From Candidatus Micrarchaeia archaeon (GTDB taxonomy: Archaea > Micrarchaeota > Micrarchaeia > Anstonellales > J096): DNA of 29,817 bases. The stretch covers positions 1 to 29,817 of the forward strand of contig JBGQMY010000017.1 in NCBI GenBank assembly GCA_041500865.1, written 5' to 3'. The notes under the pieces were generated by a model, which saw only the letters and a list, made by a program, of their open reading frames with translations, did no database searches and was not told the origin of the DNA. The position numbers and the translations under genes are program-made. This document shows, in pieces, positions 3,077-24,149 of this stretch. How positions within the stretch are numbered: the stretch's first letter is position 1; each line of letters opens with the position of its first letter.

Positions 3077-5416
3077 ATGGCTCAGCCGTTCAGGAAGGGC
3101 AGGGTAAGCCTGGGTTCAGTCATCGTGTCCATCTTTGTGCTGCTCATAGTCCTGTTTGCAATCCTGATACTGTTGGTTGTAGCATACTATATCTTCTTTG
3201 CTGGCCCTGATATTTTCTTCGCGCCCCCCAGCGCAAGGGAAATCTCAATCTCCGGCCGCGGGCCCCTTGTGGACTCGCAAATCAATTTTTACATACTTAA
3301 CGACGATGGCACAAAGGGCGCGCTTGCAGGCAACGCAACCTCCGGAAGCGACGGGGTGTATTTCGCAACAGTCAACGCCGCGCAAGGGGACTTCCTGCTT
3401 GCAGAAGCCGCAAACGGCACCTACGCAGACGGCGTCAACAAGACAAGGCGCATGAAGCATTCAGAAGTCCTTACTGCCGCGGCATCTGCCGAAACCGATG
3501 ACATTCTAATGACAATAACGCCGCTCACGCACATGGCGGCAACAAGGGCAAGGGCGCTTGCTGCCAACAGCACCCCGCTTTCAACTGCAGTTCCTTCAGC
3601 AAACATTGGGGTCGCGCGCCAATATGGGCTTGTGGATATAATCCAGATACAGCCTATTCTTCCTGACGACGAGGACTGGCTTTCAAGCGCCGACATGGAC
3701 GAACGCAACTATGCGCTTGTGCTAGCCGGCATATCAACAGAGGCGGAAACGCTTGACGTAAGCACGGTTGGGCTTGCTGATGCGCTTGCCGATGACGCAA
3801 GCGACGGCATCCTTGACGGGAAGGACAGCGGGGAACCCATCTCAATGGACACATTATCAGACAGCTCTGCGCGGCTTGACCCAGGGGCGGGCATAGCAGG
3901 CGTGCAGAACGGCATTGCAGCAGCCCCGGTTGCGCCGAACATTAAGCCGAACCAGGCAAATTTGGCAATCCCCCTCCAGCCAGTGCCGCTTGGGATAAAC
4001 GGTGCAGGAAAGTTCTATATCACGTCGACAATGCCGCCAGCGGCATTTGCAGGGGACGTATACAACGTGCAGCTTACGGCCCAGGGCGGAACGCCGCCCT
4101 ACACCTGTTCGCTAGCTCCGAAAAACGCAGACCTGACTGTGTCCGCGCCGCCGGACTGGCTCCAGCTTGGGGCGGATTGCACGCTTAGGGGCAACGTGCC
4201 GCCATTGGTGGGCGGGAACACGATGACAATATCCCAGCCGTTCACGGTGCTGATGTGCGATTCCGCAAACGAATGCGGCGCTTTCGAGATTCGCATAACT
4301 GTCATCGGGCAAAAGCCGGAAATAGCGACGCATGAGGCAAGATGCTTCGTGAACGAGTTCTGCAACGAGAACATCGCGACTGCTGACGGCGGGCAGCCGC
4401 CGTACCACTTCAGGTCGGATTACCTCAGGGAAGGCCCGACGCCGATGGGAACGATAGTGGGCTTGAACGGGAACATCCGCGGAACCCCCACTGTCATGGG
4501 AACCTACAGCGTCGGCGTATGCGCCATAGACATGATTGGCGCATACTCGTGCGGCCACGCAACAGTCAGGGTGGTCTCGTCTAATGCAACACTGTACCTT
4601 AAGAAAACGGGAAGCGGCACAGGCAAGGTCTATGCAAACCCGTACAACAAGGACAACGTCTATGCAAACGGCGTTACGGTCACGCTTACGGCAACAGCCG
4701 ATTCCGGCTCAACGTTCATTGGATGGGGAGGCGATTGCGAAGGCGCTGCTTCCGACAAATGCACGCTCCTGATGAACGGGGACAAAAGCGTTGAGGCGCA
4801 GTTCGACAGCAACGGCTCGTCTAATGCAACACTGTACCTGAAAAAGACGGGAAGCGGCACAGGCAAGGTGTACGCAAACCCGTACAACAAGGACAACGTC
4901 TATGCCAACGGCGTTACGGTCACGCTTACGGCAACAGCCGATTCCGGCTCAACGTTCATGGGATGGGGGGGCGATTGCGAAGGCGCCAGCTCTAGCAAAT
5001 GCACGCTCCTGATGAACGGGGACAAAGACGTGGAGGCGCAGTTCGACAGCAGCGGACAGCAGCCGAGCGGCGAGATTTCTGTCAAGATAGACACGGGCAG
5101 GTGCGGAGCAGCGAACGGCGAGGTATACGGTCCTGTCGGCACCGAGCTTATGGTTTATTATGGAAGCGGGCACGGAACCGGCTACCCGGTCAGCTCTATA
5201 AATTGCGGCAAATGGACGCCTGGCCCTGACACACAGTACCAGTGCCAGCGCGGGGACAACGACCCATACGGGACCGGATGGGCCGCGCTGACTTGCCAAT
5301 CGTGCAGCTACGGCGGCTCCATTAGCGCGGTCGTCTATGCCCCATCGTCCTATGTCCTCATCTTAGGCGCCGACAACATGATGGAAGAGGCAAATGCCAA
5401 TTTCCCGTGCAGATGA
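3077..5416 (+). CDS. Large membrane-anchored surface protein with putative Ig (He_PIG-like) domains and two InlB-B/Listeria-Bacteroides-type repeats
   Basis: N-terminal RKG followed by a long hydrophobic helix. LTAQGGTPPYT and ADGGQPPYHF...IRGTPT are Ig-like motifs. GSGTGKV...VTLTATADSGSTFxGWGGDC...CTLLMNGDKxVEAQF is duplicated. Many cysteines. Confidence 0.8.
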   Translation: MAQPFRKGRVSLGSVIVSIFVLLIVLFAILILLVVAYYIFFAGPDIFFAPPSAREISISGRGPLVDSQINFYILNDDGTKGALAGNATSGSDGVYFATVNAAQGDFLLAEAANGTYADGVNKTRRMKHSEVLTAAASAETDDILMTITPLTHMAATRARALAANSTPLSTAVPSANIGVARQYGLVDIIQIQPILPDDEDWLSSADMDERNYALVLAGISTEAETLDVSTVGLADALADDASDGILDGKDSGEPISMDTLSDSSARLDPGAGIAGVQNGIAAAPVAPNIKPNQANLAIPLQPVPLGINGAGKFYITSTMPPAAFAGDVYNVQLTAQGGTPPYTCSLAPKNADLTVSAPPDWLQLGADCTLRGNVPPLVGGNTMTISQPFTVLMCDSANECGAFEIRITVIGQKPEIATHEARCFVNEFCNENIATADGGQPPYHFRSDYLREGPTPMGTIVGLNGNIRGTPTVMGTYSVGVCAIDMIGAYSCGHATVRVVSSNATLYLKKTGSGTGKVYANPYNKDNVYANGVTVTLTATADSGSTFIGWGGDCEGAASDKCTLLMNGDKSVEAQFDSNGSSNATLYLKKTGSGTGKVYANPYNKDNVYANGVTVTLTATADSGSTFMGWGGDCEGASSSKCTLLMNGDKDVEAQFDSSGQQPSGEISVKIDTGRCGAANGEVYGPVGTELMVYYGSGHGTGYPVSSINCGKWTPGPDTQYQCQRGDNDPYGTGWAALTCQSCSYGGSISAVVYAPSSYVLILGADNMMEEANANFPCR
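4576..5051 (+). repeat. Tandem 240-bp in-frame domain duplication (4576-4811 and 4816-5051)
   Basis: Hand alignment gives about 18 differences in 236 bp, mostly synonymous. Confidence 0.92.
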
Positions 5417-15499: not shown

Positions 15500-16473
15500 G
15501 CATGGACGATTTCGACGCGTTCTTCCGCAAATACGGAAAATCAAGGATTGCGTTTGTCGCCCACTCAAGGGCCGACATAGACAGCATATCGTCGGCATAC
15601 GTGCTCAAGAAGAGGTTCAGGAACAGCGTTTTAGTGGTTCCGAACGACACCACCTATTCGGCAGGCAAGCTGATAGAGTCGTTTGGAATAAAGTTCGAAA
15701 CGCTTGAAACGATAGACCTCAAGGAGTTTGAGGGCGTGGTTTCGGTTGACGCAAGCAACTACGGGCTTTTCGAGATAGACAAGTCCGTCAAGGTAGTCGC
15801 GGTCTTTGACCACCACCAGAAGGCGTACAACGGCTTTGAGGGCGAGTTCAACTTCATAGACTCCGACGCCAAATCCACTGCCGAAATAGTGGTCGGCATA
15901 CTTGAAAGGGAGCTGGACAAGGAGGACGCGACGCTGCTGGGCGCCGCGATAATATCCGACACGTCGAGGTTCAAGTCAGCCAACAACGAGACGTTCGGCA
16001 TGCTGTTCAAGCTGATAGAAAAATCCAAAAAGGACTATTCCGAAATGCTTGCGTTGGCCTATCCGCCGCTTCCGAACGACGAAAAGGTCGCGATACTGAA
16101 GGCGATGCAAAGGGTGGAGTTTTTCGAGCACAAGGGGTTCGTGATTGCGCTTTCGCGCGTCAACGCGAAGATAGGCGAGGCATCGTCCATGCTTTCAGAC
16201 GCCGCGGACGCCGCCTTTGTGGCCCAGTACAATGAGACGGAGAAAAAGACAATGATATCCGCAAGGGCCAACCCGTATTTCCCTGTGCCGCTGAATGGCA
16301 TAATGGCCGAAGCAGGCAAGAAATACAAGGGCTCGGGGGGCGGGCATTTCAAGGCGTCCGGCGCTTCAGGCTATGCAAAAGCCGAGGAGATGCTTGAGTT
16401 CTGCCTTGAATCGCTGAAACAGGAGATAGACAAGCGGAACCTTGACTATTCCCAGATAGTGCCGAAGAAATGA
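15496..16473 (+). CDS. DHH/DHHA1 phosphoesterase (NrnA-like nanoRNase / pAp phosphatase)
   Basis: HSRADIDS, VD, FDHH, STAE, ISDTSRF, SAR and GGGH motifs. Confidence 0.92.
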   Translation: MSMDDFDAFFRKYGKSRIAFVAHSRADIDSISSAYVLKKRFRNSVLVVPNDTTYSAGKLIESFGIKFETLETIDLKEFEGVVSVDASNYGLFEIDKSVKVVAVFDHHQKAYNGFEGEFNFIDSDAKSTAEIVVGILERELDKEDATLLGAAIISDTSRFKSANNETFGMLFKLIEKSKKDYSEMLALAYPPLPNDEKVAILKAMQRVEFFEHKGFVIALSRVNAKIGEASSMLSDAADAAFVAQYNETEKKTMISARANPYFPVPLNGIMAEAGKKYKGSGGGHFKASGASGYAKAEEMLEFCLESLKQEIDKRNLDYSQIVPKK

Positions 16474-16526
16474 GCTTTTGGCAACCATCATAAAGAGATA
16501 TATATCTTTCTATCAAAAATCTAAAC

Positions 16527-17345
16527 ATGAAAATCGCAATATTGGCAATAGCTCTTGGATTATTGCTACTTTTTGGGTGCCTGGGGCAGACGAACACTGC
16601 GGCAAACAATCAAACTGCTGGGCAGGGGCAGGCAAATACTACAGTAAATCTAACTACAGAGGTTAACCAAACAATAATATCTAAGAATTACACTCTTGAT
16701 GAATTGTTGACTGCTATACGTAATGACACCACCCTTGCAAAAAGTATTATCGAGAATGGTGCAGATGTAAATTCTAAAACTTATGAAGGTTTGACCCCGC
16801 TCATGTATGCTGCAGCGAATGGTAAAACGGATATCTGCACTTTGCTGATTGAAAAGGGTGCATATGTAAATGAAAAATTATATTATCCTGATATTCCACA
16901 ATATAAAGATGAACCAAAAGGCCAAACTGCTCTTTCTTTTGCTATAAGCAATGGACATACTGATACAGCTAGGCTATTAATTAACAAAGGTGCAGATGTA
17001 AATGCAAGACTTCTTGGAACAGGATATGATGGCAGGACGATGCTTATGGAAGCCATAGTTCAAGTTAGAGGATCAAGTTCATCAGTAGGAGTAGCTACTG
17101 ATTTAGTTAAGCTACTAATTGAAAAAGGTGCAGATGTAAATGCAAAGGACGATAAAGGTAGAACTGCATTAATGGTTATTAATAACTGGCATGCTGACAT
17201 CACTAAGTTGCTTATTAATACTGGCATGGATTTAAACGCAAGAGATACAGAGATGAATAAGACTGCTCTTGGCTGGGCAATATATCGTTTTGGAGAAGAT
17301 TCTGAAATAGTCAGCATCCTGAGGCAGGCAGGCGCCACTGAATAA
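16527..17345 (+). CDS. Ankyrin-repeat lipoprotein (AT-rich gene)
   Basis: MKIAILAIALGLLLLFGC signal; repeated GxTPLMYAA...LLIEKGADVNAK units. Confidence 0.9.
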   Translation: MKIAILAIALGLLLLFGCLGQTNTAANNQTAGQGQANTTVNLTTEVNQTIISKNYTLDELLTAIRNDTTLAKSIIENGADVNSKTYEGLTPLMYAAANGKTDICTLLIEKGAYVNEKLYYPDIPQYKDEPKGQTALSFAISNGHTDTARLLINKGADVNARLLGTGYDGRTMLMEAIVQVRGSSSSVGVATDLVKLLIEKGADVNAKDDKGRTALMVINNWHADITKLLINTGMDLNARDTEMNKTALGWAIYRFGEDSEIVSILRQAGATE

Positions 17346-17466
17346 TCTTGGTTTTGGTTATTCTTACACAGTCCCTAAAAAGTAGTTGTCATTAAGCGGG
17401 GCATTGTGTTTGACTCCGCATGGTTTCTGCCATCTTTTTTAAACCGTTTCCCTGCATATCCGCAGC

Positions 17467-19026
17467 ATGAACGGCATCGGCAAGGAAGCCAAAAAGGAGC
17501 TTGACGTATACAAGCACAGGAAATACATCACCCAGGCCAGGCTGGTGGACATCAGCACCGGCAAGAAAATTGTCGTCTTAAACGACAAGGAGGCCGTTGC
17601 CAACGACATATTCGAGGGCCAGAGGGTCCAGATAACGGTCAAGGGTGCGCCGCACATCGTTCTCGTCAATCTTTCAAAGAGCCTTGTCAAGGAAGGCGAA
17701 ATCGGCATATACGCCGACGTTTCGCAGAACTTCGCGATATCCGAGGGTGACATAATAGAGATAAACCACGTGCCGATGCCAAAAAGCCTTGAAACCATAA
17801 TAAAGAAGATAGGAGGCCAGCCTACGACAAAGGAGGAGACAGACTCCATAATAAGCGACCTCATGGCGAACCGTCTTTCAGAACCGGAACTTTCCGCATG
17901 GCTCACGGCATGCTCCATACGCGGGCTTAGCGACGACGAGGTTGTCTCGCTCACCGAGTCCATGGTGGCTTCAGGCGACACGCTGAAGCTCGGCAAATCC
18001 CCCATAGTGGACAAGCACTGCATAGGCGGCGTTGCCGGAAACAGGACAACGATGGTGCTGGTCCCGATAATCGCGTCAGCCGGCATCTACATACCCAAGA
18101 CGTCGTCAAGGGCCATAACGTCCCCTGCCGGAACGGCAGACACAATGGAGGTTTTTGCCCCGGTCAACATAAGCATGGACGAGATGAGGGAAATAATGAA
18201 GAAGACGTTCGGCGTCATCGTGTGGGGCGGGGGCATAAACATAGCGCCTGCCGACGACAAGATGATACAGCTGAGAAGGTCCCTAAGGATGGACCCGAAG
18301 GGCGTGCTGCTTGCAAGCATCCTTGGGAAGAAGAAGGCAGTCGGCTCCGAACACGTGCTGATAGACATACCGCTCGGCATAAACGTCAAGGTCGGTGACA
18401 TGGGGACAGCGCAGGACCTGGCAAAGGACTTCAAGACGATAGGCGCACGGCTTGGAATGAACGTGGGCGTGGTAGTCACGAACGGCTCGGAGCCGATAGG
18501 CGACGGCATGGGGCCGGTCCTCGAGGCGAAGGACGTGCTCATGGTCCTGGAAGGCAAGGGTCCCGTTGATTTGAGGGACAAGAGCCTGATGATGGCAGGC
18601 AAGATATTCGAGCTGTGCGGGAAGGTCAGCAAGGGCGAAGGCTACGACGTGGCAAAGCACTTCCTTGAGTCAGGGAAGGCGCTTTCCAAGATGAAGGAAA
18701 TCATAGAGTCGCAGGGAGGGGACCCGAACGTGAAGTCGGATTCGCTGCCTGCCGCTAAATACACGTATGTGGTTAAGGCCACCGTGGGCGGAAGGATAGA
18801 GCACATAGACAACAGGAGCGTGTCCCGCATCGCGAGGGCGACAGGGGCTCCGCAGGACAAGGCCGCAGGCCTTTACCTGCACAAGGCAAAAGGCGACACT
18901 GTCAATGAAGGCGACGTCCTGTTCGAGCTGTTTGCGGAAAGCGAGGCCAACCTGGACTTCGCGCTGAAAATGGCTGAGGAATTCAACCCCGTCATGATGG
19001 GCAAGGTGCTGATTGACGAGTTTTAG
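17467..19026 (+). CDS. deoA: AMP phosphorylase (thymidine phosphorylase family; pentose bisphosphate pathway)
   Basis: DKHCIGGVAGNRTT, PKTSSRAITSPAGTADTME, WGG..IAPADD and GAPQDKAAG, plus the archaeal N-terminal extra domain. Confidence 0.95.
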   Translation: MNGIGKEAKKELDVYKHRKYITQARLVDISTGKKIVVLNDKEAVANDIFEGQRVQITVKGAPHIVLVNLSKSLVKEGEIGIYADVSQNFAISEGDIIEINHVPMPKSLETIIKKIGGQPTTKEETDSIISDLMANRLSEPELSAWLTACSIRGLSDDEVVSLTESMVASGDTLKLGKSPIVDKHCIGGVAGNRTTMVLVPIIASAGIYIPKTSSRAITSPAGTADTMEVFAPVNISMDEMREIMKKTFGVIVWGGGINIAPADDKMIQLRRSLRMDPKGVLLASILGKKKAVGSEHVLIDIPLGINVKVGDMGTAQDLAKDFKTIGARLGMNVGVVVTNGSEPIGDGMGPVLEAKDVLMVLEGKGPVDLRDKSLMMAGKIFELCGKVSKGEGYDVAKHFLESGKALSKMKEIIESQGGDPNVKSDSLPAAKYTYVVKATVGGRIEHIDNRSVSRIARATGAPQDKAAGLYLHKAKGDTVNEGDVLFELFAESEANLDFALKMAEEFNPVMMGKVLIDEF

Positions 19027-19027
19027 G
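18999..19027 (+). repeat. Left 29-bp direct repeat (3' end of the AMP phosphorylase gene)
   Basis: GGGCAAGGTGCTGATTGACGAGTTTTAGG; 28/29 identical to 23695-23723. Confidence 0.93.
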
Positions 19028-19100
19028 GTTTTCATTTATTTTTTAAAAAAACCACGATGCCACAATCACATATAAAAATAGCTGGCTGCCATTCAAATGC

Positions 19101-20096
19101 ATGGGCGTAATTTCCCTTTTTGGCGCGTCTGCATGGAAGAAATGCAGGATAGTCCTTCCTGAGGCGGAAGACGGGCGCATCCTGGAGGCGGCTGCAGCGG
19201 CAATGAAAAAAGGGTTCGCGGCGCCGGTCCTGCTTGGAAACAGGAAAAAAATAGAGGCAAAGGCCAGGGAGCTTGGCATCCAGATTGCTGGCATTGAGAT
19301 AATGGACACCTCCAAGGGCGTTCCGCGGGAATACGTAAACGCATATGCAAGGATAAGGCACGTGCCGCCGAAGCTTGCGGAGCGCATCCTCTCGCAGCCT
19401 ATCTTCCTGGCGGCGCTGCTTGTCAAAGAGGGGAAATGCGATGCCATGATGGGGGGCGCAGTCTACACTTCTGCTGACGTGATAACGGCTTCCGAGGGCA
19501 TCATAGGGCTGAGAAAGGGCGTTTCAGTGCCGTCCAGCTTCTTCATAATGGAAATTCCAGGATACAAAAGCGCGGAAAACGGCATTGTCCTTTTTGCGGA
19601 TTCGTCAGTCAACATAAACCCTACCGCCGAACAGCTTGCGGACATAGCGATAACAACGGCCGGCACGGCAAAGGAGCTCATGGGCTGGGTCCCAAGGGTG
19701 GCGATGCTTTCGTTCTCGACAAAAGGGAGCGCCATCCACCCGCTTGCCGACAAGGTCATCAATGCAACCAAAATCGCAAACAGGAAGGCAAAGGCGTTTC
19801 ATATAGACGGCGAAATGCAGGGCGACTCTGCGCTTGTGATGGACACCGCAATGAAAAAGATGAAGGGCAATGTCGGCGATGTCGCGGGCAGGGCAAATGT
19901 CCTGATATTCCCGGACTTGGACGCAGGCAACATCTCATACAAGCTGGTGCAGGCGTTCGCAAAGGCGAACGCATACGGCCCTATATTACAGGGCTTCCAA
20001 ATGCCGGTCAGCAACCTATCTAGAGGCGCCAAGGTAGACGATATAATTGGCGCAGTCGCCATCTTGAGCACATGGGCAAAGGGGATGAGGAAATGA
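19101..20096 (+). CDS. pta: Phosphate acetyltransferase (short Pta)
   Basis: RIVLPEAEDGRIL, FADSSVNINPTAEQLADIA, VAMLSFSTKGS, IDGEMQGDSAL, FPDLDAGNISYK, GPILQG and LSRG. Confidence 0.95.
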   Translation: MGVISLFGASAWKKCRIVLPEAEDGRILEAAAAAMKKGFAAPVLLGNRKKIEAKARELGIQIAGIEIMDTSKGVPREYVNAYARIRHVPPKLAERILSQPIFLAALLVKEGKCDAMMGGAVYTSADVITASEGIIGLRKGVSVPSSFFIMEIPGYKSAENGIVLFADSSVNINPTAEQLADIAITTAGTAKELMGWVPRVAMLSFSTKGSAIHPLADKVINATKIANRKAKAFHIDGEMQGDSALVMDTAMKKMKGNVGDVAGRANVLIFPDLDAGNISYKLVQAFAKANAYGPILQGFQMPVSNLSRGAKVDDIIGAVAILSTWAKGMRK

Positions 20097-21283
20097 ACAA
20101 GATACTGGTTCTCAACTGCGGCAGCTCGTCCATAAAATACAGGCTTTTCGACTCCGCATTCAGGGAAATACTCAGCGGCAAAGTGGAGAGGATAGGCGAA
20201 AAGGAATCCGAGATTGTGCACAGCAAGGGCAATGCAGTTTACAGGGCAAAGGTGAAGGCCAGCAACCACAAAGAGGCGATAGCCTTGATGATAAGGATGC
20301 TCCATGACAAAAAATGGGGCGGCATACGCAAAGCCACAGAAATATCTGCCATAGGGCACCGCGCGGTCCACGGCGGGCAGATGGCTAAAACATCGCTCGT
20401 GTCAGGCGCGGCAATCGGATACCTAAAATCCTTTGAGATGCTCGCGCCGCTGCACAATCCACATAACATAGAAGGCATGAAAGAGATGAAGAAGGCCATG
20501 CCGAATGTTCCACAGGTCATGGTGTTCGACACTGCATTCCATCAGACAATGCCAAGAAAGGCATACATGTACGGGCTGCCTTACAGCTTCTTTGACAAGT
20601 ACGCTGTAAGGAGATACGGCTTCCACGGCACATCCCACAAGTACGTTTCGCTGAGGGCCGCTGAAATGCTGGGAAAGAAAAAGCCCAACCTCATAACATG
20701 CCATCTTGGCGCGGGCTCAAGCATAACCGCAATAAGTAAAGGAAAGTCCGTTGACACGAGCATGGGCATGACGCCGCTGGAAGGCGTAATGATGGGAACA
20801 AGGACAGGGGACCTGGACCCGTCCATAGTTCAATATTTGGTTAAGAAATACGGCTTTGGCTATGACGCCCTTTTTGAAATAATGAACAGCAAGAGCGGCC
20901 TGCTCGGCATATCCGGCGCCAGCAAGGACGTCAGGATAATAGAGGGAAAGGCAAGGAAGGGCAATGAGAGGTGCAGGCTTGCGCTTGAGATGTTCGCGTA
21001 TAGGGTCTCAAAATACATCGGCGCATATGCCGCTGCCCTGGGCAAGGTTGACGCAGTGGTGTTCACGGCCGGCATCGGCGGGAATTCACCGGACATGAGG
21101 AAGAGGATATGCGCCAGCCTCGGCATAATCGGGGCAAGGCTTGACCCAGGGAAGAACGCCAAGGCCATAGGCAAAGAGATGGACATAAGCGCAAGGGGCT
21201 CAAAGGCCAGGATACTCGTGATACCGACAGATGAGGAGCTGATGATGGCAAAGGAGGCCGCAGCGGCAATTAGGGGATTATGA
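20093..21283 (+). CDS. ackA: Acetate kinase
   Basis: ILVLNCGSSSIKY, GHRAVHGG, APLHNP, FDTAFHQT, RRYGFHGTSH, HLGAGSS, DTSMGMTPLEG, FTAGIG and IPTDEE; ATGA overlap with pta. Confidence 0.97.
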   Translation: MNKILVLNCGSSSIKYRLFDSAFREILSGKVERIGEKESEIVHSKGNAVYRAKVKASNHKEAIALMIRMLHDKKWGGIRKATEISAIGHRAVHGGQMAKTSLVSGAAIGYLKSFEMLAPLHNPHNIEGMKEMKKAMPNVPQVMVFDTAFHQTMPRKAYMYGLPYSFFDKYAVRRYGFHGTSHKYVSLRAAEMLGKKKPNLITCHLGAGSSITAISKGKSVDTSMGMTPLEGVMMGTRTGDLDPSIVQYLVKKYGFGYDALFEIMNSKSGLLGISGASKDVRIIEGKARKGNERCRLALEMFAYRVSKYIGAYAAALGKVDAVVFTAGIGGNSPDMRKRICASLGIIGARLDPGKNAKAIGKEMDISARGSKARILVIPTDEELMMAKEAAAAIRGL

Positions 21284-21657
21284 TGGGAATAGAGGGCATC
21301 GGCGTGGACATCGTGGACGTAAAGAAGCTCAAAAAAATCCTAAAGGGCAAAGCCGGAAGTAAGTTCATTTCAAACACCTTCACCAAGCGCGAGATTGAGT
21401 GCGCGAAAGGCGGGCTGAACATATACAAGCTTGCAACATCGTTCGCGGCAAAGGAGGCAGTTTTCAAGGCGCTCGGCACCGGGTGGATTGAGGGAAAGGA
21501 CGTTGAGGTTGTGAGAAGCAGGGAAGAAGGCACGCCCTCGGTAGCGCTTCACGGAAGGATAAGGAAAATAGCTAAGAAAATGAAGATAAAAAAGGTTCTG
21601 GTGAGCCTGTCATACACTGACGAATGCGCCGTTGCCGCAGCTATAATCCTTTCCTAG
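21280..21657 (+). CDS. acpS: Holo-ACP synthase (AcpS-type 4'-phosphopantetheinyl transferase)
   Basis: GIGVDIV, FTKRE, FAAKEAVFKALGTG and VSLSY motifs. Confidence 0.93.
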   Translation: MMGIEGIGVDIVDVKKLKKILKGKAGSKFISNTFTKREIECAKGGLNIYKLATSFAAKEAVFKALGTGWIEGKDVEVVRSREEGTPSVALHGRIRKIAKKMKIKKVLVSLSYTDECAVAAAIILS

Positions 21658-21905
21658 GCCTTCTTCTTCATTTTGCCGTACATGTAGTCAACGGCCTGCC
21701 CCACTGTCTTGTTCTGCCTGACGTCCCTTTGCGGCACCCTTGTCCCGAACTCTATCTCGAGGGCCGCAAGCAGCTCCACGATGTTCATTGACTTTGCGTG
21801 CAGGTCATCCACGAAGCTGGTGGAATCCTTGAGCTTGGCCGCGCTGACGCCGAACACGTCAGCAACGACCTTCTTGACCTTCTTTTCTACTTCCTTTCTG
21901 TCCAT
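21654..21905 (-). CDS. Acyl carrier protein, atypical (KSM in place of DSL)
   Basis: 83 aa; SFVDDLHAKSMNIVELLAALEIEFG...TVGQAVDY aligns with ACP ([24 protein letters not shown]...TVQAAIDY); adjacent to acpS. Confidence 0.9.
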   Translation of the reverse strand: MDRKEVEKKVKKVVADVFGVSAAKLKDSTSFVDDLHAKSMNIVELLAALEIEFGTRVPQRDVRQNKTVGQAVDYMYGKMKKKA

Positions 21906-21906
21906 C

Positions 21907-22305
21907 CTATTCCGCCACCTTGAACACGACGATGTTCATGCCGGCTACCTTCTTGACCTTTGCCTTGACCTTCATCGGCATCTTCGCGTTCTGCGCCTCT
22001 ATCGCCTCGACGTTGGAGACGTCAAGCCCCTCTATGTTGGTGAAGAAGCACGGCCCTTCCTTGAGCTCTACGACCCCATAGGAATAGGGGTGGTATTTCG
22101 CGAACTTCATGGGCGGAAGGTTCCCGCTTGAGAATAAATGCAGCTTTCCGTCGCCGCTTATTTCTTCCCACGCCATGTCATGCGCGCTGCAGTTCTTGCA
22201 ACCGGCCTTTGGCGGGAACGTGAACTGGCCACACTTTTTGCACCTTACCCCATAGATTTTGCCCTTTGCAAGGGATGTGTAGAACTTGTTTATCATTCCT
22301 TCCAT
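21907..22305 (-). CDS. DUF35-family Zn-ribbon/OB-fold protein
   Basis: CKKCGQFTFPPKAGCKNC, GKLHLFS and PYSYGVVELKEG; GAGGTGA before ATG 22305. Confidence 0.93.
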   Translation of the reverse strand: MEGMINKFYTSLAKGKIYGVRCKKCGQFTFPPKAGCKNCSAHDMAWEEISGDGKLHLFSSGNLPPMKFAKYHPYSYGVVELKEGPCFFTNIEGLDVSNVEAIEAQNAKMPMKVKAKVKKVAGMNIVVFKVAE

Positions 22306-22310
22306 GTGTT

Positions 22311-23591
22311 TCACCTCTTAAGTACCGTAACTGCGGCATGCATGCCGTACCCGTGGTTGTGCACTACAGACACTTCAGGGATGTCCTTTATCTGCCTTCC
22401 TTTCGCCTCTCCCCTCATCTGCTTGACCGCCTCGTAAAAGTCGGATCCTGCAGAGGCGGAAAATGCGTGCCCCTTTCCATGCTTTCCACCGGATGTGTTC
22501 ATCGGCTTGTCGCCGTCGTATCTGGTCCTGCCTTCCATGACCGCCTTCCATGCCTCACCCTTGCTGAAATACCCGCATATTTCTGACTCTATCAGGTGGT
22601 ATATCTGCATGCAGTCATGCACACTCAGGTAGTCTATGTCTTTTGCAGTTATGCCCGCCATCTTCATTGCGGTTTCAAAGGCAGTCTTGTCTATTGCCCA
22701 ATCAGTCGGGTCCTTTCCGTACCATGGATAGTTGCTTGCGCTCCAGTGGAAGCCCCCAATGCCTATCGGCTCCTTTTTGCAGAACTCCTTTGCCTGGCTT
22801 TCAGAGCTGATTATGTATGCAGATGCCCCGTCAACGGTGTTGAGCACGCTCCTGGCCCTCGTCGGCCATGCCAAAAACGGGTTCTTTCTGCTTGTCCAGA
22901 ATTCCCCGTCATCCTTGAATCCTGCCTTTTTCGCATCCTGTTCGAACGTGGTCTGCACGTACGCCTTGTCGTTCTTTGACGCATGCAGTTTGATGGTCCT
23001 GTGGACTTCGCGCATCGCCTCGTCCATCTTTTCCATCTTTATGCCGTGCTTCTTCGCGTATCCCAGCGTGGGAAGCCCGCCGTATGCGGTTGCGACGTCA
23101 TACATGTGGTGGTATCCGTATGCCTGGTCCACGCCGAAATCCGTCCAGTACCATAACGTTGTCGAGTCAATCGGCTTCCTTATTGTGGGGTCATCAGTCG
23201 CTGCTGAGGACAGTATGTCACATCCTATAACCAGCACATTCCTGAATTTTCCTGATGCGACGCCCATTGCCGCAAGCCCTGCGCCGGTGTTGGTGGTCGA
23301 GCAGGCTGTCGCGAAATGGATTGCCGGCTTCAGGTGCAATCCGAGCCAGTCTGCCATCTGGGTATTGTGGGAATAAAGATGGCTGGAATGGCTGAGCATG
23401 CTGCCAAAATAGAATGCGTCAATGTCTTTCGGGTCTATCCCTGAATCGTCCATCGCCTCGAAGGCGGCCGCGCACGCGAGCTCCTGGAAGCTCAACCCCT
23501 TTATCTCAGGAGTTGCCAAAACGCTTCCGAATTTAGTGCATCCAACGCCGGTTATCACCGGTTTTTCCTTAAGGCTCCCTGCATATGCCAT
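22311..23591 (-). CDS. SCP2-type thiolase-family acyltransferase
   Basis: ITGVGCTKFG, nucleophile TAC97ST, DGASA, VHDC, NTSGG...GH and VHNHG; GAGGTG Shine-Dalgarno. Confidence 0.92.
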   Translation of the reverse strand: MAYAGSLKEKPVITGVGCTKFGSVLATPEIKGLSFQELACAAAFEAMDDSGIDPKDIDAFYFGSMLSHSSHLYSHNTQMADWLGLHLKPAIHFATACSTTNTGAGLAAMGVASGKFRNVLVIGCDILSSAATDDPTIRKPIDSTTLWYWTDFGVDQAYGYHHMYDVATAYGGLPTLGYAKKHGIKMEKMDEAMREVHRTIKLHASKNDKAYVQTTFEQDAKKAGFKDDGEFWTSRKNPFLAWPTRARSVLNTVDGASAYIISSESQAKEFCKKEPIGIGGFHWSASNYPWYGKDPTDWAIDKTAFETAMKMAGITAKDIDYLSVHDCMQIYHLIESEICGYFSKGEAWKAVMEGRTRYDGDKPMNTSGGKHGKGHAFSASAGSDFYEAVKQMRGEAKGRQIKDIPEVSVVHNHGYGMHAAVTVLKR

Positions 23592-23694
23592 ATATACACC
23601 TCATAATTTCTTATGGGATATGGCTTGCCCTGTTTTTATGTTTTTGCAATTTCCCACAAAAAGGTTCATGTTTGGCAACAGGACTGACGGAAAC

Positions 23695-23723
23695 GGGCAA
23701 GGCGCTGATTGACGAGTTTTAGG
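23695..23723 (+). repeat. Right 29-bp direct repeat (copy of the deoA 3' end)
   Basis: GGGCAAGGCGCTGATTGACGAGTTTTAGG reads GKALIDEF*, versus GKVLIDEF* in deoA. Confidence 0.93.
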
Positions 23724-24149
23724 CTATTTCTGCGCCAGCCTGCGGGCTTGCCAGAACTGCCCGAGGGCCGCTTCATCAAGCAAAAGGACAATGGAAAATG
23801 CTGCGGTCTTCTGTCTGGGGTCATAAAAGTCCTTTTCCTTGATGATGCTGAACGCCTCGATGCCCCTGCTGTTAGGGTCGTACTCAAGCATGGCAGTGCC
23901 AAGCCTCGTTTTTATGTCGTTGAGGATGGCGTTTGCCTCAATCTGGGACGGGATGTTGGATAATCGGAACATGAAGGGCTTGTGGGACTTGAAGTCTGCA
24001 ATCCCAATCGCATTGCCGTCGCTGCGGCTGGGAATTATGGCGCCGTAGTCATTTTCCAGGCCTGCAAACAGCGCCTCAACCTTCCTTTGCGCCTGCTCGT
24101 GCATCTCCTTTTCGTTCCTTTTTGCCAGCTTTTCGGTTGTGACGGCCAT
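23724..24149 (-). CDS. Hypothetical protein
   Basis: 141-aa ORF with a plausible composition, preceded by a variant of the CACAAT promoter motif; no family recognised. Confidence 0.6.
   Translation of the reverse strand: MAVTTEKLAKRNEKEMHEQAQRKVEALFAGLENDYGAIIPSRSDGNAIGIADFKSHKPFMFRLSNIPSQIEANAILNDIKTRLGTAMLEYDPNSRGIEAFSIIKEKDFYDPRQKTAAFSIVLLLDEAALGQFWQARRLAQK

Follow-up and report, generated by a model that had tools for sequence, protein, structure and literature searches.

A duplicated AMP phosphorylase gene end in a Micrarchaeota genome: probable scar of one-sided homologous recombination at the site of a horizontally spread six-gene cassette

The subject of this work is a 29,817-bp stretch of DNA (contig JBGQMY010000017.1 of a Candidatus Micrarchaeia archaeon, assembly GCA_041500865.1; hereafter the window), in which the last codons of the AMP phosphorylase gene (deoA) occur a second time on the far side of a cassette of six metabolic genes. 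The downstream copy is probably a scar of the type called insertion with long target duplication (ILTD), left when filled and empty alleles of the locus met in one-sided homologous recombination carried out by the host, and not the trace of an integrase. An earlier note on this DNA had described the cassette as a mobile islet free of an integrase gene, bounded by attL/attR-like sites of an enzyme that acted in trans or was since lost. Of this proposal the horizontal spread, the lack of an integrase and the link between gene-end duplications and insertions in this genome stood; the attL/attR integration was not borne out, because the congeners hold the six genes in that place with no repeat and no tyrosine or serine recombinase was found in the genomes searched. 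The coordinates of all features are in Table 1.

The direct repeat, GGGCAAGG(T/C)GCTGATTGACGAGTTTTAGG, is 29 bp long, and its two copies, spaced 4696 bp apart, are identical at 28 of 29 positions. Stretched by 2 nt leftward it measures 31 bp with two T/C changes (ATG/ACG and GTG/GCG). Sequence checking bore out the earlier note in these particulars and in the position of the right copy, which directly touches the stop codon of the next, convergent open reading frame (ORF) of 141 amino acids. The chance expectation of such a repeat in the window is about 1.5e-7. The copies, which flank an insert of less than 20 kb (4.7 kb), are unique in the genome: no third copy of the 29-mer was found in its 1.04 Mb with up to 6 mismatches allowed.

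The source genome (G000) is a 36-contig assembly. It was compared with two congeners (G001 and G002), with a close metagenome locus (L071), in which the left repeat copy is unchanged, and with sequencing runs (X1-X6); six of the eight listed runs were used, as contigs and not as raw reads, four of them across the whole region. The right junction is crossed by identical contigs in runs X2 and X5, which come from two other studies independent of X1, the possible source of the assembly, and the right copy also occurs, diverged, in three related alleles (X4 with 7 changes, a second X5 allele with 2, X6 with at most 2). Because of these contigs and alleles the duplication is not an assembly artefact, an explanation for which the number of contigs and the contig-level comparison might be cited but which merits practically no credence. 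The repeat is real.

At this site the cassette predates the repeat. G001 and G002 carry the same six genes in unchanged order, directly after deoA and before the same downstream genes, and neither has a repeat at the locus. Remnants of a repeat were not significant in either (1554 and 1478 of 2000 shuffles, respectively, scored equally high), and a seeming worn remnant in G002 was rejected by this shuffling. Both copies in G000 read TTT TAG, whereas both congeners have TTC TGA, so the right copy is younger than the split from the congeners. Four-fold degenerate sites of the flanking genes differ by about 0.5 between G000 and G002; given this difference and the codon pattern, the 29-mer is not ancestral to the genus, and a non-coding 29-mer would hardly have stayed 28/29 identical since the genus ancestor. 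In X4, which is about 91-92% identical, 7 of 29 positions of the right copy are changed, and four-fold divergence to L071 is 0.16-0.30 in six of nine genes (range 0.06-0.40); the rate of change in the X4 copy looks as expected for the neutral decay of a scar. The deoA tree has the form (G001,(G002,(G000,L071))). The copy dates from the interval between the divergence of G002 and that of X4.

Elsewhere in the genome six more gene ends are duplicated, every one in a different sequence. A scan of gene ends (own ORF calls, 979 genes, 542 single-copy tails) gave four tails with a downstream intergenic copy scoring 52-66, namely those of deoA, the thermosome gene, DUF63 and DUF655; among the controls (four internal offsets and one upstream) the best score was 34, itself part of the thermosome repeat (Fisher p 0.0008). 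To these come a worn copy of the Lhr tail of about 100 bp, an exact 43-bp copy of the Nop head, and the tail copy of a DHH-family gene (20/33, below the scan threshold), the last of which was recognised through empty alleles and not by the scan. The sister repeats measure 43 to about 100 bp (33 at DHH), and the seven duplications have no common core sequence. Their cargo is unrelated: a dihydroorotate dehydrogenase fusion, a VapB-type antitoxin, ankyrins, an ASCH gene pair and, at Nop, a restriction-modification (RM) enzyme, the cargo there starting within an ankyrin reading frame. The Nop and DHH sites are cleanly empty in G002; at thermosome, DUF63 and DUF655 it has neither cargo nor second copy, and at Lhr other content. 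Of the 21 codons that differ between copies, 13 are changed synonymously (p 0.0004 against 0.25), and at thermosome, DUF63 and Lhr these lie toward the stop. This excess and this position suggest that two working alleles met.

Some details of these loci may be added. The thermosome site (L107, G000:C20:14679-16693) is a tail duplication of about 77-81 bp that encloses a dihydroorotate dehydrogenase/PyrK-like fusion of low GC; the stop of this gene falls within the second tail copy, and G002 lacks the gene. At DUF63 (L106, G000:C9:25670-26394) a 48-bp tail duplication surrounds a solo VapB-type antitoxin gene, and both differences are synonymous. The tail of the Lhr-like helicase gene (L108, G000:C21:9969-10995) is duplicated around two small genes, with 23 bp identical followed by an AT-richer, diverged tail. 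At DHH, G001 has other small genes and a 15-16-bp duplication of the DHH tail (L047, 8316/8463). Repeats on contigs C12 (21/28) and C22 (an internal 32-bp copy) were examined and not counted. At L110 (G000:C22:11741 and 14004) there is a 32-bp intergenic copy of a stretch 2.3 kb downstream, apparently within the next gene; we take the gene pair to be topoisomerase VI-like.

Tyrosine integrases form islands with att sites in the 3' ends of protein genes, e.g. icd, guaA or dusA, where the gene tail is regenerated on the left and the old tail is left on the right. The deoA locus has the same layout, with the deoA tail on the left and the old tail on the right, and its geometry and length fit such sites. 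Synonymous differences between the copies would likewise be in keeping with an attP bringing in a new tail, the cassette has spread horizontally, and the genomes of the family are incomplete (77-94%). Nevertheless, site-specific integration into deoA with regeneration of its 3' end, by an enzyme acting in trans or lost since, is unlikely. Tyrosine recombinases (PF00589, XerA included) were found in none of the 19 genomes of the family (f1), the source genome and its 18 relatives, while the controls were positive in 14/14; serine recombinases (PF00239, PF07508) were found in 0/3 genomes of the genus. The cassette holds six metabolic genes and no mobility gene, and no integrase or resolvase was found elsewhere in the genome; the search for recombinases and further 29-mer copies that the earlier note had proposed thus came back empty on both counts. 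Seven different targets with no shared core would require seven lost integrases. No direct repeat longer than 14 bp flanks the cassette at the loci of other genomes examined, viral contigs gave no match to a degenerate 27-nt pattern of the repeat, that is to an attP, or to the thiolase, and the cassette was at deoA before the repeat arose. A tRNA gene as target was not found in the window. Family-wide loss of PF00589 tyrosine recombinases is possible. A transposon or casposon does not fit either: there is no terminal inverted repeat (the best inverted match around the cassette is 12 bp), Cas1 was found in 0/3 congeners, and a solo TnpB and a Y1 transposase fragment, in a survey that did not include DDE transposases, lie elsewhere in G000. 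Our literature search gave no matching paper on a Micrarchaeota integrase with direct-repeat insertion.

Excised and empty forms, which an earlier reading of the locus led one to expect in close relatives and in reads joining the two repeats, did not come to light. The contigs of the four runs that span the whole region contained no joint pointing to an empty site or to excision as a circle, contigs being prone to lose rare forms. X2 has one joint that runs backward, from 23718 to 19263 across 10 intervening letters. We did not take it for a circle, because a circle would be joined 23723-19028 and because the piece carrying it did not recur when the narrower stretch was compared. In the genome search for an empty site the 141-aa ORF was found, among 60 relatives, only in G002 (2/61 genomes in all; 46% identical), where it sits behind the cassette. 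A metagenome scan with the deoA C-terminus gave 11 loci, ten of them distant and one close (L071), which is filled and ends before the right junction.

Two further explanations were weighed. According to the first, the cassette never moved, and a template switch during replication or an ectopic conversion copied 29-31 nt of the deoA tail 4.7 kb downstream. The cassette is indeed in place in the congeners, no empty allele was seen at deoA, and thiolase and ORF are separated by about 105 nt in G002 and, leaving the repeat aside, by 103 nt in G000. However, a switch would find no guide in G002, whose spacer does not resemble its deoA tail to a significant degree, the copied stretch ends 1 nt past one stop and directly at the other, and five of the six other gene-end duplications coincide with cargo that is absent from G002; such a copy in place is therefore rather unlikely. 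According to the second, tail and cassette were duplicated in tandem and the second cassette was then deleted, leaving its tail. The genome has many tandem paralogue arrays, and, so far as one can judge, the two repeat copies started out identical. Two illegitimate events would be needed, however, the second ending exactly between two stops; recombination between tandem copies would be expected to take the tail away too, and the foreign cargo at the other sites would stay unexplained. We regard this course as quite unlikely.

The preferred explanation, host recombination between filled and empty alleles, can be laid out in steps. A deletion in the G000 clade would have produced an empty allele, in which the deoA stop is followed by 1 nt and the stop of the 141-aa ORF. 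Thereafter, a relative's DNA would have recombined through one-sided homology, presumably with the help of RadA, which is present in 3/3 congeners, and the incoming free end would have been joined illegitimately 29-31 nt before the deoA stop. By one route, an empty cell would regain the cassette and keep its old deoA tail behind it; by the other, a filled cell would take in the empty allele from the right and keep only its last 29 nt of deoA. Both routes give one structure, and the data cannot separate them. From then on the scar would drift neutrally, and ends at a stop or start codon would persist because the host gene is left intact. On this reading, the old site probably lost the cassette and later received it again.

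A junction of this kind has a counterpart in the literature. Homology-facilitated illegitimate recombination is described in Touzain 2010 (PMC2884548) and, as a process leaving displaced 3' ends, was proposed in Kirchberger 2017 (PMC5361080); in the available parts of these papers it joins one homologous anchor with one illegitimate junction and puts displaced gene 3' ends behind new cargo, as would be the case at deoA. It depends on a donor whose cargo adjoins the homologous gene, an arrangement found in the congeners, and a recombinase of the RadA kind is at hand. Duplications of 25-100 bp are not among the outcomes mentioned there. In contrast, the process is known, from the same parts of these papers, in naturally competent bacteria, whereas this genus has RadA and no match to DprA or ComEC.

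Several observations weigh against recombination between filled and empty alleles as the origin of the scar. An empty allele at deoA was not seen in any genome, locus or run compared, and the loss step is one that we infer. DprA and ComEC were found in 0/3 congeners, leaving the route of DNA entry unexplained. The two-allele signature is missing at deoA itself, where 0/2 copy differences are synonymous, and the p value of the synonymous excess over all sites rises to 0.035-0.25 once the null takes account of transition bias and of continued synonymous change in the coding copy. The ancestry inside the cassette is a mosaic, with no clean foreign tract bounded by the repeats, and the length of 29 bp is slightly under the cut-off of >30 bp used by Furuta et al., 31 bp being reached with two mismatches. 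As to generality beyond G000, 552 kb of loci from other genomes, with 486 ORFs, held no orphan tail scoring at least 40. Two offset-0 matches in the tail scan of 41 other-genome loci were read as tandem paralogues, internal offsets having matched too.

ILTD was described for RM genes in bacteria (Furuta 2010, PMC2853133), with the above cut-off as a working value; RM cargo was present in all cases, being a search criterion, and no archaeal case survived the selection. Common to those cases and the deoA locus are an insert of less than 20 kb between direct repeats of genome-unique sequence, the absence of a mobility gene, variable repeat lengths, and repeats that span start or stop codons and leave the target gene intact. 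The deoA locus differs in its metabolic cargo (pta, ackA, acpS, acp, DUF35 and thiolase), its archaeal host and its 29-31-bp repeat. It differs further in its relatives, which show no empty site but hold the cargo in this place, unaccompanied by the repeat. Empty sites are those at Nop and DHH in G002, and RM enzyme cargo is limited to the Nop site. The deoA locus works like ILTD, outside its original RM definition, and carries ILTD beyond the RM genes of bacteria, to metabolic cargo in an archaeon without detectable integrases. It also cautions against taking an att-like repeat at a gene end as a sign of an integrase or of first arrival, the cargo being older here than the scar. For work on the mechanism of ILTD the locus should be useful, as it offers scar alleles of bracketed age together with donors in which the cargo adjoins the homologous gene. 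A bolder reading would be that the family gave up site-specific recombinases and gains or regains genes by a dedicated one-sided capture at gene ends, deoA being a switchable energy module linked to acyl carrier protein (ACP) that cycles between filled and empty in populations; this we consider doubtful.

The cassette has spread horizontally as a unit. PF00550 was found in 26 of 401 related genomes, in 21 of them within this cassette and in five in other contexts; all six genes are present in 18 of the 21, and in the other three the contig ends before pta. Within the family only the three genomes of the genus have the cassette, and outside the genus its neighbours differ. The thiolases of the genus form one clade (100/99), nested among those of another family (f9). 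Records named Woesearchaeota, Thermoproteota, Paceibacterota and Borrarchaeum likewise contain close thiolases. The source of the cassette would have been a different Micrarchaeota family, and its arrival would predate the divergence of the three congeners.

Within the genus, the thiolase tree joins G000 to G001 (approximately unbiased test, p 0.009 against G000+G002), whereas the deoA tree joins G000 to G002 and rejects the alternative grouping (p 0.007). Four-fold divergence between G000 and G001 is 0.50 in the cassette vs 0.67 in the flanks (p 1e-8), and between G000 and G002 0.43 vs 0.51 (p 0.002). Because of the conflict between the trees and the lower divergence of the cassette, it is seen to be exchanged in place among the lineages of the genus, as a mosaic and not in one clean tract. 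The ackA gene sides, with weak support, with the backbone; the tree made for pta is only a quick one. The earlier note had counted it as refutation if relatives all carried the six genes here with vertical phylogenies and no empty site; half of this picture was found, the congeners having the six genes in this place without any repeat. Against the L071 background of 9%, substitution-free runs of 178, 224 and 151 bp lie at 18982-19159, 21947-22170 and 22250-22400, and a patch of 20% divergence lies near 21593-21843; these may reflect recent allelic exchange around the left junction and within the cassette.

In a contig filed as Methanosarcinales (L041) two genes are inserted between acp and acpS, one of them DNA methyltransferase-like (by eye). 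The six-gene block of ACP, AcpS, Pta, AckA, thiolase and DUF35 has relatives in other small-genome lineages.

Table 1. Features of the deoA and DHH loci (positions within the window)
Feature	Position	Strand	Remarks
DHH-family gene tail, coding copy	16441..16473	+	second case in window
Ankyrin gene, GC 0.39, inserted behind DHH	16527..17345	+	absent from L071, run X4 (joint 16467-17380) and G002
Worn second DHH-tail copy	17353..17385	+	20/33 identical, 6/10 changed codons synonymous; native downstream sequence then follows
AMP phosphorylase (deoA), host gene with duplicated tail	17467..19026	+	TIGR03327 586 bits, cut-off 535
Left copy of 29-bp repeat	18999..19027	+	codes GKVLIDEF* + 1 nt; end of deoA
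Phosphotransacetylase (pta)	19101..20096	+	PF01515; NF007233 above cut-off
Acetate kinase (ackA)	20072..21283	+	PF00871; TIGR00016 above cut-off
Holo-ACP synthase-like phosphopantetheinyl transferase (acpS)	21280..21657	+	PF01648; TIGR00556 above cut-off
Acyl carrier protein (acp)	21654..21905	-	PF00550 above cut-off; NCBIfam ACP models slightly below cut-offs
DUF35/ChsH2-type zinc-ribbon + OB-fold thiolase partner	21907..22314	-	PF12172 + PF01796
Thiolase, archaeal thiolase-domain type, cassette-specific	22311..23591	-	PF22691, PF00108; NF004720 best match, below cut-off
Thiolase upstream region	23592..23694		aligns with both congeners; stops at right-copy junction
Right copy of deoA tail, probable non-coding scar	23695..23723	+	worn in relatives; absent from G001, G002
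Fast-evolving 141-aa ORF, stop adjoins right copy	23724..24149	-	no Pfam/NCBIfam match

The GC content between the repeat copies is 0.53, similar to that of the surrounding genes, and composition gives no mark of the cassette. The real start of ackA may lie a few codons downstream of the called one. The cassette thiolase is the second in the genome, the other, distant one being on contig C1. An Atlas search with the 141-aa ORF gave no usable match.

As far as gene content allows a prediction, the cargo likely couples the thiolytic release of acetyl groups to ATP formation through Pta and AckA, with the ACP as putative carrier. Archaeal ketothiolase/DUF35 pairs, to judge from the accessible part of a preprint (bioRxiv 10.1101/2024.07.05.601840), likewise have the thiolase beside its DUF35 partner, a likeness that concerns the cargo only. 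In the same part of that source ACP and its synthase are said to be absent from nearly all archaea. The presence of ACP and AcpS in an archaeon is more surprising than the scar, yet it is a separate finding. Literature searches gave no matching paper on a set of ACP, acetate kinase and phosphate acetyltransferase in DPANN archaea and, at the level of listings, no title on this cassette under acyl carrier proteins of Micrarchaeota.

RubisCO was found in 3/3 congeners, and therefore an AMP-salvage route exists. The suggestion that deoA is a functionally convenient site is weak all the same: 18 other genomes keep the cassette beside other genes, so it does not require the deoA neighbourhood.

Elsewhere in the window, a 240-bp tandem duplication lies at 4576-5055 within a 779-aa surface-type protein, and the ORF at the window start has 78-87-bp cysteine-rich repeats (37-565).

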